Origin: Minisyncoccota bacterium
GTDB taxonomy: Bacteria; Patescibacteriota; Minisyncoccia; Phycocordibacterales; UBA2100
Reading direction: 5' to 3'
Assembly: GCA_022842645.1 (NCBI GenBank)
Contig: JALHPE010000001.1
Location: 264,178-328,177, forward strand
DNA length: 64,000 nt
In this document: in pieces, positions 7,428 through 43,656 of the stretch
Position numbering within the stretch: the first letter of the stretch is position 1
Layout: every line of letters begins with the position of its first letter
Notes under the pieces: model-generated
What the model was told of the DNA's origin: nothing
Seen by the model: the letters and a program-made list of their open reading frames with translations, nothing else
The model's database searches: none
Made by a program: the position numbers and the translations under genes

Positions 7428-8935
7428 GGCGACTTCTCATGCGCGGCGGAACCTCCAGGTTCCGCCGCTTCTTTTTGCATAACAACCCACGCGAAGAGTG
7501 CTGCGTAACACCCCGCAAGCACCAATCCACTAAACGCGGGGATACTCAGCGTTCCAAAAGGAATCGCAGACAATAATTGTGCGGTCGTAATAATATACGA
7601 AAGCAGTGCGAGTGCTGGAAAACCAAATAAAGGTGCGAGAATGCCTGTAAAGAGCCCGAGGAGTGCCGCGAGCGCGGAAAAAAGCATGGCAAACGGAAGT
7701 GCAACAAGTACTAGGATATTCGCGGGGAGCGCGACGACGCTGAGCATTCCTGTCTGATAAAGCAGCAGTGGTAGAACGGCAATTTGGGTTCCAAGCGTGC
7801 CTGCTGCAATTTCTCGCACACCAAAGCGCGACGTGATCCATGAAAGATGCGTCTCAAAAAGCGGTGCGACAACGACAAGCCCGAGTGTGGCAATCACCGA
7901 AAGCTGAAAACCGGGATCATAGAGAAGTACGTAGGGGTTCCAGAAGATCATCCCCACCGCAACGAGAGCAAGTGCTCGCACAGCAAGATACGTGCGTCCG
8001 GTTGCCTTCCCTGCAATTGCGATTGTTGCCATAAGCGCCGCACGCGTCGACGCTGATGCAAATCCCGTAATCGCCGCAAAGAACAGTGCGACGAATGCGC
8101 CGAGCCCCAAACGCACTAATTGCGGTGCACGCGAGAGGGTGCGTAAGAGCGCATCCACTACGACCATAATGTTGTAGCCGGAGAGCACGACAATGTGCGT
8201 GAGACCCACGATGCGAAACGTTTCAGAAAGCTCTTCGCCGAGACCGCGCTTATCGCCCACCGTAATTCCGCCCGCGAGTCCAGCGTATGGCTCAGGAAGT
8301 GCGAGCGAAAGTCCTTCCAGAAACTTTTGCTTGAGCCAAATGGCACTGGCTTTCAAACGATTCCCCGTGCCACTTTCAATCACTTCTACGTGTGCAAACG
8401 ACATCTGATAGAGAATGCGATCTTTCGCAAGAAAGCCTGGGTAATCAAAGTATCTTCCCTCTCCTGTTTCAAAAGCTTCTGGGATGCGGAGCTCTCCCTC
8501 GACACGCACCCGATCGCCATACGTGCCGGGCGAGTGGAGTGGTGCGCTCACAATCACAGAAAGCGCACTCAATACTGTTGTTGAGCCCACACTCTCAATA
8601 CGCATGGTAAGCCGCACGTTTTTCTCTCGCACATCCGGCTCTGCTACAATCACTCCCTCGAACGAAACTTTTTCTCCCACGTAGACATCGATAAGGGGAT
8701 CACTCGTACGTGTCGCGCCCTGCATCCGCGCCATACCTCCAGCGCATGCGCAAAGGAGAAGTGCCGCAACTAATGCGACACGCCACTCTACCTGCGCAAC
8801 ACTGCTGGCGAGCAACAACATTCCTGCAAGCGCAATGAGCCACCCAAGAGTTACAACACCGAACGGAAAAAGACTTTGCACAAAAACTCCAACACTAAAA
8901 CCAATTACTAGTGTCCAAAATATTCGCACTGCCAT
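7424..8935 (-). CDS. comEC: ComEC/Rec2 competence membrane channel domain (no MBL domain)
   Basis: Polytopic membrane protein with a ComEC competence-domain signature. Start moved to internal ATG (MAVRIFW) because the TTG at 8983 overlaps the upstream terminator hairpin. Confidence 0.8.
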   Translation of the reverse strand: MAVRIFWTLVIGFSVGVFVQSLFPFGVVTLGWLIALAGMLLLASSVAQVEWRVALVAALLLCACAGGMARMQGATRTSDPLIDVYVGEKVSFEGVIVAEPDVREKNVRLTMRIESVGSTTVLSALSVIVSAPLHSPGTYGDRVRVEGELRIPEAFETGEGRYFDYPGFLAKDRILYQMSFAHVEVIESGTGNRLKASAIWLKQKFLEGLSLALPEPYAGLAGGITVGDKRGLGEELSETFRIVGLTHIVVLSGYNIMVVVDALLRTLSRAPQLVRLGLGAFVALFFAAITGFASASTRAALMATIAIAGKATGRTYLAVRALALVAVGMIFWNPYVLLYDPGFQLSVIATLGLVVVAPLFETHLSWITSRFGVREIAAGTLGTQIAVLPLLLYQTGMLSVVALPANILVLVALPFAMLFSALAALLGLFTGILAPLFGFPALALLSYIITTAQLLSAIPFGTLSIPAFSGLVLAGCYAALFAWVVMQKEAAEPGGSAAHEKSP

Positions 8936-8953
8936 CCCAGTAGCATAGCAATA

Positions 8954-8979
8954 CAAAAGCGGCACTCTTTCGAGTGCCG
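8954..8979 (-). terminator. rho-independent terminator (minus strand)
   Basis: CGGCACTC-GAAA-GAGTGCCG hairpin followed by CTTTTGTATT in minus sense. Lies between the 48-aa ORF stop and comEC. Confidence 0.55.
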
Positions 8980-9009
8980 CCAATTAGTTATGTCTTCGCG
9001 ACAGGCATT

Positions 9010-9156
9010 CTAGCCGTCAACGTACTTCCGAGTACGAGGATCATCCGCCGGACGATCGCGACGAGCCGGCGGTGCTCCCGCCCCACCAAATGTGGCGGGA
9101 GGAGCCGAAGTAACCGTCGCACCACTTGCAGTTGCAGCTTGCATGCCACTAGTCAT
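9010..9156 (-). CDS. small peptide ORF (48 aa, Ala/Thr/Gly/Pro-rich, basic C-terminus ending YVDG)
   Basis: AAGGAG SD 8 nt upstream of the ATG. Sits between the E1-like gene and a terminator. Sequence MTSGMQAATASGATVTSAPPATFGGAGAPPARRDRPADDPRTRKYVDG. Confidence 0.4.
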   Translation of the reverse strand: MTSGMQAATASGATVTSAPPATFGGAGAPPARRDRPADDPRTRKYVDG

Positions 9157-9271
9157 TTTAAGACTCCTTCTTGCCAAAGGTCCGCTTCTACAAACACGCT
9201 CTGGTTGCGGACACACCGAGCTCATTTGAATATACACAGAATAAGGCCGGGCGACAAGCTCGGCCTTATAG

Positions 9272-10000
9272 TTACTCTTCAGCATCTCCCCCAATTTCAT
9301 CTTCGTCCCAGTATTCATGGGCTTCTGCATATGTGGGAACATACTGCCACGCGAGCATATTAAGGTAGGGGTCTGGACATCCTTGTTCAAGGTGCAGCCA
9401 ACGATTGAGACGCCAGAGCATCTCGGCCGCTACACGATCGGAATTCTCGGGCATCGGAAACTCCGTTTTGCATCCTCCGTGTAAGTTTTCGGGGTCAGGA
9501 TGGTTATGGATCGGAGACTCAATGTCTGGCTCCTCGTAACATTCCAGGTGCCACGGATTGGCCGGATTGAATCCGAAAGCTTTGCCGCCATCCATGCCTA
9601 CCCTGCCATCTGCACAAAACGAAACCTTGCCACTTTGTTTGATGGATGGCAACACATCGTGATAACGAGATTTGTTTGAGTCCACTGCCATGAGCACAAT
9701 GCCACGCAGGAGAGTGTCTTTAGTTACCCTCTCGGCATGAGTGACAATGGTCGTATCGGATGCTGGATAGATGGTGCGCGCAATGCGCGCCAGACCCTCC
9801 ACTTTCAATGTGCCGACATCTGCATCGAAATACGGCTGGTTAAAGAGATTTCTTTCTTCTAGCACATCGGCATCCCACACATGGAGATTGGGTACGCGTT
9901 TGCGAAACAAATTTAAGAAAAGCTTCGCCCCCAGCGTCCCAGCCCCCACAACGTGTACTGGTCGTTCTTTCAAAAAACTGACATTGAAGAGAGTTTCCAC
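9272..10000 (-). CDS. E1-like enzyme, ThiF/MoeB/HesA superfamily
   Basis: Rossmann motif VHVVGAGTLGAKL, then NLHVWDADVLEERNLFNQ and ILMAVDSNKSR. GTG start with AAGGAGA SD 6 nt upstream. No CxxC zinc motifs. Confidence 0.8.
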   Translation of the reverse strand: METLFNVSFLKERPVHVVGAGTLGAKLFLNLFRKRVPNLHVWDADVLEERNLFNQPYFDADVGTLKVEGLARIARTIYPASDTTIVTHAERVTKDTLLRGIVLMAVDSNKSRYHDVLPSIKQSGKVSFCADGRVGMDGGKAFGFNPANPWHLECYEEPDIESPIHNHPDPENLHGGCKTEFPMPENSDRVAAEMLWRLNRWLHLEQGCPDPYLNMLAWQYVPTYAEAHEYWDEDEIGGDAEE

Positions 10001-10093
10001 GATGGTTCTCCTTGTATGCTTTGTTCACTCTGAGCACACCCTAACGCAAGTTGCGGAAAAAGAACAGGCGCATCTTCCGATGCGCCTGTATTT

Positions 10094-10789
10094 TTATCTC
10101 CCAAAGGTCTGAATGTACCATTCAGGCACATCATCAGGAGACACCTGTGGCCACAAGCGCAAATTATCGTGTTGACCACTACACTCCGCATAGCGAACGG
10201 CAATTTCTACTAGCTGCACATGATCATGTCGTTTGAAAGCATCGATAAGCGGTGGTCCCGCATTCCCTATGCAGCCGACAGCCCCTGATAACTGAACACC
10301 GGCGGGTGCTTGCATGTCTTTTACAGCACCTTCCAGATTGATCCAGTGCATCTGATTTCGATCACCCGAGAGCAATATACTGATGAGGAAAGGGCCGACG
10401 CGATGCCACTGAGAGTCAGTGCTCTTACCAAACAGCGGATGTGTCAGTATAACAAGACTCTTACCCCGAAACTGTATACTTTCTACTTGCGGCACATTGT
10501 GGATACGATGCCATTGATCTTTATACATCTCCCGCGCTAATGCCTGAGATGCATCTTCGGCTTCGACCCGATTGAGCAAACCGTGCAAACGTGTTAGCTC
10601 TGTCTTATTTCTCCCAATGCGTTTGCGAATTTTTTTCGTCGACGAATGCCCTAGATCTCCTTTAATGCGGATTTCTATATTCTGAATGTGAGTGCGCAAA
10701 AGATTTGCTTCCTTGAGAAGTTGGTCCTGGGACTTCCCCAAATAACACATACAGAACTCAACATACTCACGTTCACAGATTGGATGCAT
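10094..10789 (-). CDS. hypothetical protein (231 aa), partner of E1-like gene
   Basis: GAGGAG SD 9 nt upstream. Charged/helical N-terminal half. C-terminal half contains HDH(x13)SGQHD, which is not a canonical JAMM motif. No confident domain call. Confidence 0.55.
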   Translation of the reverse strand: MHPICEREYVEFCMCYLGKSQDQLLKEANLLRTHIQNIEIRIKGDLGHSSTKKIRKRIGRNKTELTRLHGLLNRVEAEDASQALAREMYKDQWHRIHNVPQVESIQFRGKSLVILTHPLFGKSTDSQWHRVGPFLISILLSGDRNQMHWINLEGAVKDMQAPAGVQLSGAVGCIGNAGPPLIDAFKRHDHVQLVEIAVRYAECSGQHDNLRLWPQVSPDDVPEWYIQTFGR

Positions 10790-10851
10790 CTGGTATTCTC
10801 CTCTCTTGCCTTTGGTGTGTATACCGTGTCTTTACGAAACGGTCAACACTA

Positions 10852-41164: not shown

Positions 41165-41235
41165 GCGGGATTCGTTCAATGGTAGGACATCAGTTTTCCA
41201 AACTGAGGACAGGGGTTCGATCCCCCTATCCCGCA
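41165..41235 (+). tRNA. tRNA-Gly (anticodon UCC)
   Basis: Manual fold: acceptor GCGGGAT/ATCCCGC, D arm GTTC-AATGGTA-GGAC, anticodon stem TCAGT/ACTGA with loop TTTCCAA, T arm AGGGG-TTCGATC-CCCCT. CCA not encoded. Confidence 0.85.
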
Positions 41236-41236
41236 C

Positions 41237-42331
41237 ATGTTCAGACTCCTTGGCTTTGCTTTCGTACTTGTGCTCGCCTTGTTTGTACTCTCCGCGGCGC
41301 CTGAAGTTGCTCACTCCCCCACATACACACGCGAACCAATACCGCCAACTGAGCTCTCTTCCTCAACCGAGTCCGTGCTCGAAAAATCCCCGCCGACAGA
41401 CGATACTGCGGAAGAACTACAGCTACCTCCCGAGCCCCAAACGGAAGTCGTGGCACCAGAAAAAGCAGTACCTCCACTACCCTCTCCTCTTGAAATTGCT
41501 CGGGCGAACGCCCAGAGAGCTGTTGTTAATATTCTCTGTGAGCCAAAGGCAAACGGCAGAATGGCAGTTTCCGGCACCGGAGTCATCATCGACCCCCGCG
41601 GGGTCATAATCACCAATGCCCACGTCGCACAGTATGTACTTCTCTCGGCACGGGAAGAAGTGAACCTGACATGCATTATCCGCACTGGCTCCCCTGCGGT
41701 AAAAACATGGAAAACCGATATTCTTTATATCCCCCGAGAGTGGGTGGATGAGCACGCAGAAGACATTATAAAAACAAGACCGTCAGGCACGGGCGAGGAT
41801 GATTACGCCTTCCTTATTGTGAGGGGTCTAAATGACGAAGCAGTAGGTCCCCTTCCCTTTCTCCCCATAGAAACTGCCATCGACACTAGTGTGGTTGGGA
41901 GCACCACCGTTCTTTCGGCTTACCCGGCCGAGTTCTCAGGATTAGCTGCAACTCAGCAATTCCTCCTCTCATCGGCAATACTGACCCCCGTACGCAACAT
42001 ACTCACATTCAACGCCAATACAATAGACGTGCTCTCCTTCGGCGCCGTAGCCCTCGCCCAAGGTGGCTCATCGGGCGGTGCGGTTGTAAATGGAGATGGC
42101 AAGCTTATAGCCATAATCTCCACAACAAGCGACAAGGAATTCATTGCTGAGCGCGATCTTCGGGGCGTTAGCCTCTCATACATAGATCGCGCATTAAAGG
42201 AGAGCTTGGGGATTGATTTATCCACCATGCTTGAAGGAGACGTATTTGCACAAAGCGCACAATTTAGATTAAACCAAGCCCCAGGACTGGCACAACAGAT
42301 AATTAACTTCCTCTCTCAGAAACAACAGTAG
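41237..42331 (+). CDS. secreted trypsin-like serine protease (S1 family)
   Basis: Signal peptide. GVIITNAHV His region. GGSSGG catalytic Ser motif. Starts 2 nt after the tRNA. Confidence 0.75.
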   Translation: MFRLLGFAFVLVLALFVLSAAPEVAHSPTYTREPIPPTELSSSTESVLEKSPPTDDTAEELQLPPEPQTEVVAPEKAVPPLPSPLEIARANAQRAVVNILCEPKANGRMAVSGTGVIIDPRGVIITNAHVAQYVLLSAREEVNLTCIIRTGSPAVKTWKTDILYIPREWVDEHAEDIIKTRPSGTGEDDYAFLIVRGLNDEAVGPLPFLPIETAIDTSVVGSTTVLSAYPAEFSGLAATQQFLLSSAILTPVRNILTFNANTIDVLSFGAVALAQGGSSGGAVVNGDGKLIAIISTTSDKEFIAERDLRGVSLSYIDRALKESLGIDLSTMLEGDVFAQSAQFRLNQAPGLAQQIINFLSQKQQ

Positions 42332-42344
42332 CTCTTATTTCGTA

Positions 42345-42415
42345 TCGGGGCGCCGAGAATCGAACTCGGTCTATCTGCTCCCAAAGCAGACGTACTACCG
42401 GTATACTACGCCCCG
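42345..42415 (-). tRNA. tRNA-Pro (anticodon UGG)
   Basis: Manual fold of the minus-strand sequence: acceptor CGGGGCG/CGCCCCG, anticodon stem TCTGC/GCAGA with loop TTTGGGA, T arm CCGAG-TTCGATT-CTCGG. Confidence 0.85.
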
Positions 42416-42574
42416 TAAACAGGAAGGATTCTAGCACCTTTTCATAAAAACGTCCGCTTCACTGATACCACCCTACTGTTTAGGGGGTTTGCGCCAGAGA
42501 ATCGTTTTTAAAAGCAAATACCACTGCCACTGCTTACCTTGTCATAAAGGACGAAATGCTTTTTATTTTGTCCT

Positions 42575-42958
42575 TTATAAAACCTGCTCGTAAAACCGAC
42601 ATCTCGCAATTCGATTTTGGGTATCAAGCACCACCGCCACGACATCGATCTGATATTCACGATTATCACCCTTCTCCTCCATGTAGAGACTAGCGGTTCT
42701 TGCGACTTTCCGAAGCTTTGAATCGTGAGCCATTTCTTCTGGTCGGTGATCAGACATTTCACGTGAACCGTCATCACGCAGAGTTTGTGACTTAACCTCA
42801 ACAAACCTAACCACCCCTCCCTTCTCAGCAATAATATCTATCTCTCCCCACTTCTTGCGAAAATTAGTTTCTAATATAGAAAAACCCTTATTTTCCAAGA
42901 ATTTACGTGCAATATCCTCACCAAGATTGCCGGTTATCTGTTTTGAGGTCTTTCCCAT
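42575..42958 (-). CDS. yraN: YraN family (UPF0102) endonuclease-like protein
   Basis: GNLGEDIARKFLENKGFSILETNFR...GEIDIIA...VRFVEVK motif pattern of UPF0102. Confidence 0.8.
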   Translation of the reverse strand: MGKTSKQITGNLGEDIARKFLENKGFSILETNFRKKWGEIDIIAEKGGVVRFVEVKSQTLRDDGSREMSDHRPEEMAHDSKLRKVARTASLYMEEKGDNREYQIDVVAVVLDTQNRIARCRFYEQVL

Positions 42959-43299
42959 GTGTTTTCACGTGAAATGTTAAACTTTGTGTAACTTAAGAAA
43001 CATTATCGTCAAAATACAGGATGTCTCTTATTTTATGGCTTAAAAGCTGAGTTTTAAGTATAAACCCCTAAAAACGGTATATGTCCTATATCCACATATC
43101 CCCAGAGTTGTCCACATATTGGTCATTGTTTTGGACAGAAGTCACAAAAACTCTCTTTACTTCGTTTCCTGGTACCGATACTCGCTATGCTCGTTTCCGT
43201 AGGTGGTCGAAATTAGTCTAATGCGGATACTTCATGTCCGTACGTCGTCGCTCGAAAGCAAAAGAGCCTTTCAGGCTCTTTTGCTTTACTCGCCCCTAG

Positions 43300-43370
43300 T
43301 GCGGATAAGGAGAATCGAACTCCTATTTTCTCGTTGGCAACGAGGCGTTTTACCACTAAACTATATCCGC
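43300..43370 (-). tRNA. tRNA-Gly (anticodon GCC)
   Basis: Manual fold: acceptor GCGGATA/TATCCGC, anticodon loop TTGCCAA, T arm AGGAG-TTCGATT-CTCCT. Followed in minus sense by terminator GAGCC-TGAAA-GGCTC plus TTTT (43261-43282). Confidence 0.85.
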
Positions 43371-43448
43371 TACATGTGCCTCAGGAGACCCCCGATGCAA
43401 CGCAGGGGATTATACAGCAAGAATAGGGGAGGGCAATTTTTATTTATT

Positions 43449-43576
43449 GGTCACGGATAACCCGACTGCCGTCGCAGTCGAGTTTCCGCGACCCCGCCTC
43501 GGCCGTTTCGCCTTTTGGAGAAACATGCCTCCGGCCAGCACCGGATCGAAAAAACCTGCCGCAGGGCAGGTTTTTT
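43449..43576 (+). ncRNA. candidate structured small RNA, copy A of a 3-member paralogous family (own terminator)
   Basis: GGTCACGGATAA head. Hairpin CGACT-GCCGTCGC-AGTCG. Conserved TTTCCGCGACCCCGCCTCGG. Hairpin GTTTCGCC-TTTT-GGAGAAAC. Terminator CCTGCC-GCAG-GGCAGG plus TTTTTT. About 75 percent identical to copies at 61408-61587 and 61588-61717. Confidence 0.55.
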
Positions 43577-43584
43577 CATATCGG

Positions 43585-43656
43585 TGCTCCCGCCAGGACT
43601 CGAACCTAGAATACGACGTCCGAAGCGTCGCGTGATATCCATTTCACCACGGGAGC
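43585..43656 (-). tRNA. tRNA-Arg (anticodon UCG)
   Basis: Manual fold: acceptor GCTCCCG/CGGGAGC, D arm GTGA-AATGGATA-TCAC, anticodon stem CGACG/CGTCG with loop CTTCGGA, T arm CTAGG-TTCGAGT-CCTGG. Confidence 0.85.

Follow-up and report, generated by a model that had tools for sequence, protein, structure and literature searches.

On the minus strand of a 64-kb window of the Minisyncoccota contig JALHPE010000001.1 (positions 264,178 to 328,177, the whole stretch analyzed here), three small genes lie in a row before comEC. They encode a protein of 231 residues that we call X, a stand-alone E1-like enzyme of 242 residues and a peptide of 48 residues. An earlier, sequence-only reading of this DNA had described the three open reading frames (ORFs) as a cassette with strong Shine-Dalgarno (SD) sequences and a closing terminator. 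The window sequence bears this out, and the terminator precedes the probable start of ComEC near position 8935 (Table 1). The same reading had remarked that SDs are scarce in the other genes of the window, and this holds as well: a 5-mer SD core is found near any candidate start in only 4 of the 52 non-overlapping window ORFs of at least 150 residues, two of which are X and the E1. Against this low SD usage, the cassette is conspicuous for its three strong SDs.

A conserved peptide gene between E1 and ComEC

To place the 48-residue ORF in context, we compared 13 distinct loci, counting the one in the window. At all 13, an ORF of 47-55 residues fills the ~320-nt gap between the E1 and ComEC genes, always directly downstream of the E1 gene. 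Each copy begins with an ATG that has an SD in front of it, and three different stop codons are all in use. A hairpin followed by a T-run lies 3' of the small ORF in each of the 12 other loci. The N-terminal part of the peptide is variable and of low complexity, being rich in Ala, Gly, Pro, Ser and Thr. Its tail follows the consensus P-x-[DEN]-D-P-R-x-[RKI]-x-[YF]-x-[DE]-G-stop, a motif that occurs in no other ORF of the window. Twelve of the 13 peptides end in Gly and the remaining one in Ala (locus L017).

The nucleotide changes between loci show what has been preserved. Synonymous codons vary freely at the invariant P, D, D, P, R, Y and G of the peptide, and the extra nucleotide states at codon positions 1, 2 and 3 number 14, 16 and 26, respectively. 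Synonymous variation at fixed residues indicates that selection acts on the peptide sequence. Judged by these sequence comparisons, the small ORF is a genuine conserved coding gene under purifying selection. The proposal that the 48-residue ORF is a real gene has therefore held up, and the search of gene neighborhoods for short ORFs beside E1 homologs was positive in 13 loci.

What kind of protein this gene encodes is less obvious. Small, polar and charged residues make up 78-88% of the peptides, and Cys and Trp are absent. A Pfam search with the peptide gave no ThiS, ubiquitin or Pup match, and nothing in Pfam, NCBIfam, PADLOC or PHROGs corresponds to it. The β-grasp fold typically takes ~65 residues or more. 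Given their short length and few hydrophobic residues, the 47-55-residue peptides are probably unable to adopt this fold, and their length and composition suggest that they are intrinsically disordered. They share with ubiquitin-like proteins (Ubls) an exposed C-terminal Gly and a gene adjacent to that of an E1.

The setting of the cassette is as constant as the peptide tail. At every recovered locus the gene order is RecJ, DUF975, RNase H, sometimes MscL, X, E1, the ~320-nt gap, ComEC, superoxide dismutase and a gene of the metallo-β-lactamase (MBL) fold. The syntenic loci are assigned to Candidatus Paceibacterota/Minisyncoccia, which are bacteria of the Candidate Phyla Radiation (CPR). Peptide, E1 and X are found together in 13 of 13 loci, among which identities fall as low as ~47% (E1) and ~25% (X). 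Neither the loss of the neighboring MscL gene nor the duplication of X has removed the peptide. Divergent genomes have the module as a single copy in the same housekeeping synteny. We conclude that the cassette is vertically inherited within conserved housekeeping synteny and is not a defense island.

A divergent E1 and its E2-like partner

In the sequence-only reading, the 242-residue protein was taken for an enzyme that consists of an E1 domain alone and lacks CxxC zinc motifs. Both points are confirmed. The Pfam ThiF profile (PF00899) matches residues 10-157 with 44.1 bits, above its curated cut-off of 28.1 (E 1.9e-11), and no CxxC motif is present in the E1 or its aligned homologs. The best NCBIfam match is ThiF, with 51.4 bits against a cut-off of 159 (1e-13), while the MoeB models reach 16-23 bits against cut-offs of 266-449 and UbaA is likewise far below. 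An ordinary MoeB/ThiF orthologue, the possibility that the earlier reading had set against itself, is ruled out by these scores and the missing CxxC. Its remark that no ThiS/MoaD partner was visible also stands: the 64-kb window holds no credible GG-ending ORF of 55-120 residues, and no GG-ending ThiS/MoaD-like ORF is present at the 13 syntenic loci either.

Other profile libraries place the enzyme in the same superfamily at a distance. The PADLOC models of Cap2 E1-E2 proteins cover only residues ~10-100 of the E1, at E values of at least 1e-8 and far below their cut-offs, and the NCBIfam 6A-MBL cap2_3 model gives a partial, below-cut-off match to about the first 90. In a profile search of the PDB, the nearest solved relatives are the active adenylation domain of Uba1, Cap2 and MoeB, with ThiF also matched.

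The E1 has 27 cluster-level homologs, and residue conservation was assessed on an alignment of 21 homologs. Invariant in all 21 are the GxGxxG motif (G19/G21/G24), R33, D43/D45, K66, D107 and R112, along with DGR131-133, DGGK137-140 and H165 in an HNHPDP motif. By analogy with other E1s, GxGxxG, R33, K66, D107 and R112 would make the contacts to ATP. A single cysteine is invariant, Cys177, in the motif CK[ST]EFP. Overall, the 242-residue protein appears to be a divergent, stand-alone and active E1.

X is more difficult to place. A structure model of high confidence predicts an N-terminal helical hairpin (residues 1-97) and a C-terminal domain with the fold of ubiquitin-conjugating (UBC) proteins (residues 98-231). 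The UBC fold consists of a helix, an antiparallel β-meander and an active-site loop, followed by two to four helices, and the modeled domain of X has this α/β arrangement. A Foldseek search of X against the PDB gave no significant match (best E 0.3), with E2s ranked first. Aligning the X profile to E2s with hhalign likewise gave a weak result (probability 4%, E 0.01, with five canonical E2s as the reference). This weak alignment pairs [AP]P[HN][IV]…G.xC of X with HPN…G.IC of the E2s, so that Cys173 falls on the catalytic cysteine.

A word-based search recovered only 2 proteins related to X, and an exhaustive profile search was needed to define the family. It returned 471 representatives at E≤1e-3 and the 50% identity level. 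About 100 of them are 230-300 residues long; the others have 350-1030 residues and carry the domain at the C-terminus. A universal signature, W-x-N-L…[AP]-P-[HN]-[IV]…G-x-x-C-x-G, holds in ~150 representatives, and Cys173, which follows [AP]P[HN][IV], is invariant in all of these. A second cysteine, Cys203 (RYxEC), is fixed only in the short, CPR-type X family. No member of the family is assigned by Pfam, PHROGs, NCBIfam or PADLOC. Neither X nor any of 38 domain sequences matched a Pfam model, UQ_con and Prok-E2 included, even at E≤5, and a sequence-profile search of the PDB with the X domain found no E2 at E≤10.

On the strength of the modeled fold, we regard X as an E2-like protein, an assignment that is supported but remote, with Cys173 as its putative catalytic residue. 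An E2 was among the folds that the sequence-only reading had proposed for the 231-residue protein, and it is the one that survived. That reading had also pointed to an HDH(x13)S(x3)D string resembling a JAMM motif. The string exists in X, but it is not conserved (homologs read YEY, RDF or NDF), and the fold is UBC-like. A JAMM peptidase is ruled out on both counts.

In some lineages, MscL is absent and two or three tandem X paralogues precede just one gene each for the E1 and the peptide (L006, 2186-3913; L016, 1652-3395; and the JGI contig of P0025). This arrangement would be consistent with a set of E2s that differ in their targets.

E2 genes are linked in genomes to an E1, often along with JAB and Ubl genes. 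X is linked to an E1 at the 13 CPR loci and also at three loci of distant relatives (L019, L022 and L023; Table 1), where longer X proteins (X-long), JAMM proteins and β-grasp proteins are encoded. The 476-residue protein of L019 carries the complete MPN+/JAMM signature, EVGWLG…HSHVRMGTFASGTD (HSHx7SxxD), and its matches in the PDB are to CSN5 only. The E1 of this locus is a member of the window E1's family, to which it is 27% identical over 213 residues (E 1e-26) with Cys177 aligned, and its 74-residue protein matches Pfam ThiS at E 1e-3. L022 and L023 lie on IMG/VR contigs of ~200 kb. The E2-like and JAMM proteins of the three operons are without a match in Pfam, NCBIfam and PADLOC. Neither the phage collection nor viral contigs scanned with a single X-long protein yielded a match; two loci came from a narrower alignment.

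The company of JAMM and β-grasp genes at these loci places the E1/X pair in a wider, unnamed E2–JAMM–E1–Ubl type of operon. The related operons carry a Ubl at the place of the CPR peptide of 47-55 residues, which thus occupies the Ubl slot. The JAMM peptidase is absent from the CPR version, in which the Gly of the peptide is already terminal. At another locus, L020 (734-11018), three tandem proteins of ~1020-1032 residues and one of 272 residues all have an X-type domain at the C-terminus. Their large N-terminal regions contain no detectable domains, and no E1 lies within 7 kb.

Transcription signals and a candidate leader pseudoknot

The small ORF of the window has its own sigma-70-type promoter (Table 1). 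An equivalent site, TTGACA-16/17-TAnnnT, precedes the ATG by 65-78 nt in 12 of the 13 loci. In the window, the -35 box falls within the loop of the hairpin 3' of the E1 gene, and TTGACA is likewise found within a GC stem-loop in L003, L005, L012, L015, L017 and L021.

Between this promoter and the small ORF lies a leader of ~65 nt that is predicted to fold into an H-type pseudoknot. Its first stem, P1, has the consensus CCAG/CTGG. The second stem, P2, changes on both sides from locus to locus, reading GTCCGC/GCGGAC, GCTCGC/GCGAGC, GCCCGC/GCGGGC, ATCCGC/GCGGAT, GCTTGC/GCAAGC, CCTGC/GCAGG or TCCCGC/GCGGGA. Equivalent leaders are present in L001, L003, L005, L006, L009, L010, L012, L014-L017 and L021.

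We scored covariation on a MAFFT alignment (A6) that had been made without fitting to the structure and compared it to 500 shuffles. Standard pairs occupy 86.6% of the cells, compared to 76.4 ± 1.8% after shuffling, a level reached by 0 of 500 shuffles. The covariation score is 0.417, compared to 0.233, and was also reached by none of the 500. Seven of the 11 pseudoknot base pairs have changed on both sides in a compensatory manner. As a control, sliding the 3' partner by 1-3 columns lowered pairing to 23-47%. In addition, 7 of 11 loci contain, farther downstream, a perfect complement to their own P2 6-mer, whereas foreign 6-mers have one in 4% of cases. For individual loci, a test of the pseudoknot against shuffled sequence is only weakly significant; the claim rests on the covariation tests. 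Rfam has no match to the leader or the hairpins, either at the gathering cut-off or at E≤10. A CCUUU stretch just 3' of P2 is able to pair with the SD. These features point to the leader as a candidate new cis-regulatory RNA that may control translation or stability.

Table 1. Features of the cassette in the window (upper rows) and operons of distant relatives, numbered within their own loci (last three rows)
Feature	Position	Strand	Details
X, 231-aa ORF	10789..10094	minus	ATG start; SD GAGGAG 10803..10798
E1-like enzyme, 242-aa ORF	10000..9272	minus	GTG start; SD AAGGAGA 10013..10007
Small ORF, 48-aa peptide MTSGMQAATASGATVTSAPPATFGGAGAPPARRDRPADDPRTRKYVDG	9156..9010	minus	ATG start; SD AAGGAG 9169..9164; end ...RKYVDG-TAG
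Promoter-like site of X, TTGACC-17-TATACA	10846..10818	minus	read from the sequence
Hairpin 3' of X	10089..10064	minus	11 bp, 7 GC, then TCTTTTT
Hairpin 3' of E1	9269..9241	minus	immediately after the E1 stop codon
Small-ORF promoter, sigma-70 type, TTGTCG-17-TATATT	9257..9229	minus	directly after the E1 stop codon
Predicted H-type pseudoknot in the small-ORF 5' leader	9221..9180	minus	from alignment covariation
Pseudoknot stem P1	GCTCGG 9221..9216 with CCAGAGC 9204..9198	minus	one bulge
Pseudoknot stem P2	GTCCGC 9212..9207 with GCGGAC 9185..9180	minus	5' half inside the P1 loop, partner downstream
Intrinsic terminator ending the small-ORF transcript	8981..8958	minus	10 bp, 7 GC, then TTTTGT
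Operon at L019	187-4863		X-long (651 aa), 476-aa JAMM protein, E1, 74-aa ThiS-like β-grasp protein ending VKGN
Operon at L022	5825-10584		X-long, X-long, JAMM, E1, 69-aa β-grasp protein ending VVGN
Operons at L023	9-2514 and 5891-9289		X, 218-aa ORF, E1, tandem di-Ubl ending IKG; also X-long, JAMM, E1

Each of the three cassette genes is followed by a hairpin of its own. The one between X and the E1 is probably a leaky terminator or a stabilizer; T/A-rich runs flank it on both sides (AAAAATAC…TCTTTTT), and it receives a terminator score on both strands. The promoter-like site of X is missing from the list of the scan tool because its -10 box ends in A.

The ComEC ORF, when called mechanically (window 8935-8983), has a TTG start at 8983 and overlaps the cassette terminator. 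ComEC homologs start at the equivalent of MAVRIFW, and the real start is therefore probably the ATG at ~8935, downstream of the terminator. Elsewhere in the window, four tRNA genes are clustered at 41165-43656, with Gly-TCC on the plus strand and Pro-TGG, Gly-GCC and Arg-TCG on the minus strand.

A possible peptide-tagging module

Given the conserved peptide, the E1 and the E2-like partner, we favor with moderate confidence the reading that the cassette is a minimal ubiquitin-type E1–E2 conjugation module of Paceibacterota/Minisyncoccia, in which the modifier is a disordered peptide without a β-grasp fold. A consensus promoter of its own would drive surplus production of the 48-residue peptide, with the pseudoknot leader ahead of the ORF, and only the last ~13 residues of the peptide (P-x-D-D-P-R-x-x-x-Y-x-D/E-G) would be recognized. 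The E1 would bind this tail and use ATP to adenylate the α-carboxylate of the terminal Gly48. From there, the acyl group would move to Cys173 of X, either via Cys177 of the E1 or directly. X would act as an E2 and load the peptide onto target proteins, at an amino group that most likely belongs to a lysine. With the terminal Gly already exposed, no processing or deconjugating JAMM peptidase would be needed for activation. We infer peptide adenylation, a thioester relay and conjugation to targets, as well as the part played by the leader and the biological role of the whole.

The sequence-only reading had considered a peptide-modification or Ubl-like tagging module plausible. This idea has gained from the conserved peptide with a Gly/Ala end, the E2-like partner and the relatives with JAMM and β-grasp genes. 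The JAMM-like motif has fallen away, and a peptide natural-product pathway has become unlikely.

Several observations weigh against a conjugation module. We saw no target, E3, deconjugase or proteasome-like partner. The peptide of L017 ends in Ala instead of Gly, and that of L021 (…RRVANYTAG) is only a loose fit to the tail motif. With a separate hairpin behind each gene, X, E1 and peptide may not be transcribed together. Solved E1s can be aligned only to the N-terminal half of the E1, the part that the PDB matches cover, and not to its C-terminal half. Cys177 would lie in the crossover loop, a placement suggested by its roughly expected linear position. The disorder of the peptide, too, is predicted from length and composition alone.

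An unlikely alternative is that the small ORF is unrelated to the two enzymes. X and the E1 would then have their substrate elsewhere, either a CBASS-like C-terminus or a β-grasp protein, and the peptide would be independent or would represent a translated part of an RNA upstream of comEC. The ORF does have a promoter, leader and terminator of its own, the X-long genes of L020 have no E1 within 7 kb, and adjacency alone is weak evidence because synteny in reduced genomes is rigid. However, the peptide holds the place of the Ubl in related operons, obeys the Gly/Ala rule at its C-terminus and co-occurs with X and the E1 in 13 of 13 loci. It also survives the loss of MscL or the duplication of X. 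Finally, its tail motif is unique in the window, which offers no GG-ending β-grasp candidate in its stead.

We consider it quite improbable that the cassette is a pathway for a ribosomally synthesized and post-translationally modified peptide (RiPP). Here, the 48-residue peptide would be a precursor, the ThiF-like enzyme would adenylate a C-terminal or side-chain carboxylate and X would have an accessory or immunity function. The product could be a macrocyclic imide, lactone or lactam formed through the conserved Tyr, Arg/Lys or Asp/Glu, or a phosphoramidate like that of microcin C. A ThiF-like gene next to a strongly promoted short peptide gene is what such a pathway shares with the cassette, as it is with MccB, PaaA, GrcB, EnfB and IndF, and the conserved C-terminal core contains potential nucleophiles (Y, K/R). 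ThiF-like enzymes that act on C-terminal carboxylates are also known, namely EnfB, IndF and MccB (PMC12596934). However, the characterized RiPP enzymes of this type all have an N-terminal RiPP recognition element (RRE) or peptide clamp, and their clusters contain transporters and often peptidases (PMC12596934). In the 242-residue protein, the adenylation domain begins at about residue 10, leaving no N-terminal RRE or clamp, and neither a transporter nor a peptidase is found among the neighbors (MscL, RNase H, RecJ and ComEC). The conserved part of the CPR peptide is its extreme C-terminus, the partner X is UBC-like and homologous E1/X pairs accompany JAMM and β-grasp Ubl genes. The locus is, moreover, inherited vertically between RecJ/RNase H/MscL and ComEC. 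The microcin C- and pantocin-type systems raised by the sequence-only reading are disfavored on the same grounds.

A further question concerns the role of the module rather than its chemistry. Anti-phage defense of the Bil, Bub or CBASS-Cap2 kind is suggested by the partial matches of the E1 to the PADLOC Cap2 E1-E2 and NCBIfam 6A-MBL cap2_3 models and by the relatives on ~200-kb IMG/VR contigs. We give this role little credence. The matches span only the first 80-100 residues or so and score far under their cut-offs; a CD-NTase, an effector and JAB are all missing from the CPR module, and X is unmatched in PADLOC. A single-copy module in fixed housekeeping synteny is also unlike a defense island.

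As chemistry, CBASS type II Cap2 nevertheless offers, by analogy, the nearest mechanistic precedent for the conjugation that we propose. The flexible tail that Cap2, an E1-E2 protein, activates is the C-terminus of cGAS, a protein without a β-grasp fold in which the last residue is a conserved Gly or Ala (PMC10097602). All 13 peptides share this Gly/Ala end rule, Cap2 models are among the best matches of the window E1 and E1/E2 chemistry on a substrate without a β-grasp fold is what we propose here from the genes alone. The differences are considerable. Cap2 is an E1–E2 fusion that works on a CD-NTase enzyme, whereas the CPR bacteria have a separate small E1, X and a free peptide of 47-55 residues. 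They lack Cap3/JAB, a CD-NTase and an effector at a locus of housekeeping context, and X has no sequence similarity to the E2 domain of Cap2. The distance to Bil (BilABCD) and Bub is greater still, as the CPR module has neither a β-grasp Ubl nor a peptidase, lies outside a defense context and includes an X that, like its relatives, is unmatched by PADLOC, NCBIfam and Pfam. Bub uses oxyesters, and its E1 is without the Cys (PMC11601596); both CPR enzymes keep an invariant Cys.

A sulfur relay, in which the peptide would be thiocarboxylated at its Gly like ThiS, MoaD or TtuB and the cysteines of E1 and X would relay persulfides, for example in tRNA thiolation, is very improbable: ThiF is the best NCBIfam match of the E1 (1e-13), the peptide has a terminal Gly and invariant cysteines are available (one in the E1, two in CPR-type X), but the score of 51 bits is far under the cut-off of 159, CxxC and rhodanese domains are missing, the conserved neighborhood has no cysteine desulfurase, thiamine, Moco or TtuA-type genes and the ties of the relatives to JAMM isopeptidases fit conjugation better. 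To our knowledge, all sulfur carriers are β-grasp proteins. The CPR E1 resembles ThiF and MoeB in its superfamily, its stand-alone build of ~240 residues and the proposed activation of a terminal-Gly carboxylate. It differs from them in lacking the CxxC zinc site, equivalog-level scores and biosynthetic neighbors, in having a partner peptide that is unlikely to be a β-grasp protein, as ThiS and MoaD are, and in the addition of an E2-like protein.

In form, the proposed modifier is closest to Pup and UBact, which are small disordered tags with a conserved C-terminal recognition segment; for the CPR peptide, disorder is suggested by length and composition. The tail …RAYVEG of some loci loosely recalls the Pup ending …RAYVQKGGQ. 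The enzyme that ligates Pup, via a Glu side chain and once Dop has deamidated it, is the glutamine-synthetase-like PafA and not an E1/E2 pair. The CPR peptide ends in [DE]-G instead of GGQ or GGE and has no Pfam Pup match, and no PafA or Dop is encoded in the cassette or its conserved neighborhood.

Taken singly, the components have precedents: bacterial E1/E2/Ubl pathways (Bil, Bub and CBASS Cap2), disordered tags (Pup) and E1-like enzymes that work on short peptides (RiPPs). Their combination in CPR bacteria, as a vertically inherited core module of separate E1 and E2 proteins and a free, disordered modifier without a β-grasp fold, appears to be new. No CPR E1/E2/peptide system turned up in our literature searches, and the profile libraries contain none. 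We tentatively suggest, with somewhat less than even confidence, that it represents a third kind of prokaryotic tag, a disordered peptide of ~50 residues that would combine a Pup-like form with ubiquitin-like E1/E2 chemistry. Such a tag could have arisen when an E2–JAMM–E1–β-grasp system lost both the fold and the peptidase, and would serve as a core, non-defense post-translational modification whose supply is under the control of a new pseudoknot riboregulator.

The system is small (242 + 231 + 48 residues) and suits direct work in vitro, where trypsin would be predicted to leave a YVDG remnant, adding 434.18 Da to Lys. The analysis also defines a sizeable E2-like family that has no Pfam, NCBIfam or PADLOC model and adds a candidate new structured RNA. 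If the peptide is conjugated, the β-grasp fold would be dispensable for E1/E2 tagging and a bare C-terminal tail would be sufficient. This would extend the precedent of CBASS-cGAS to a free-standing modifier, with a bearing on how ubiquitin-like signaling evolved. It would also give a function to three hypothetical genes that have been kept in a large, uncultivated lineage with minimal genomes, in which the genes that are retained are likely to be important.

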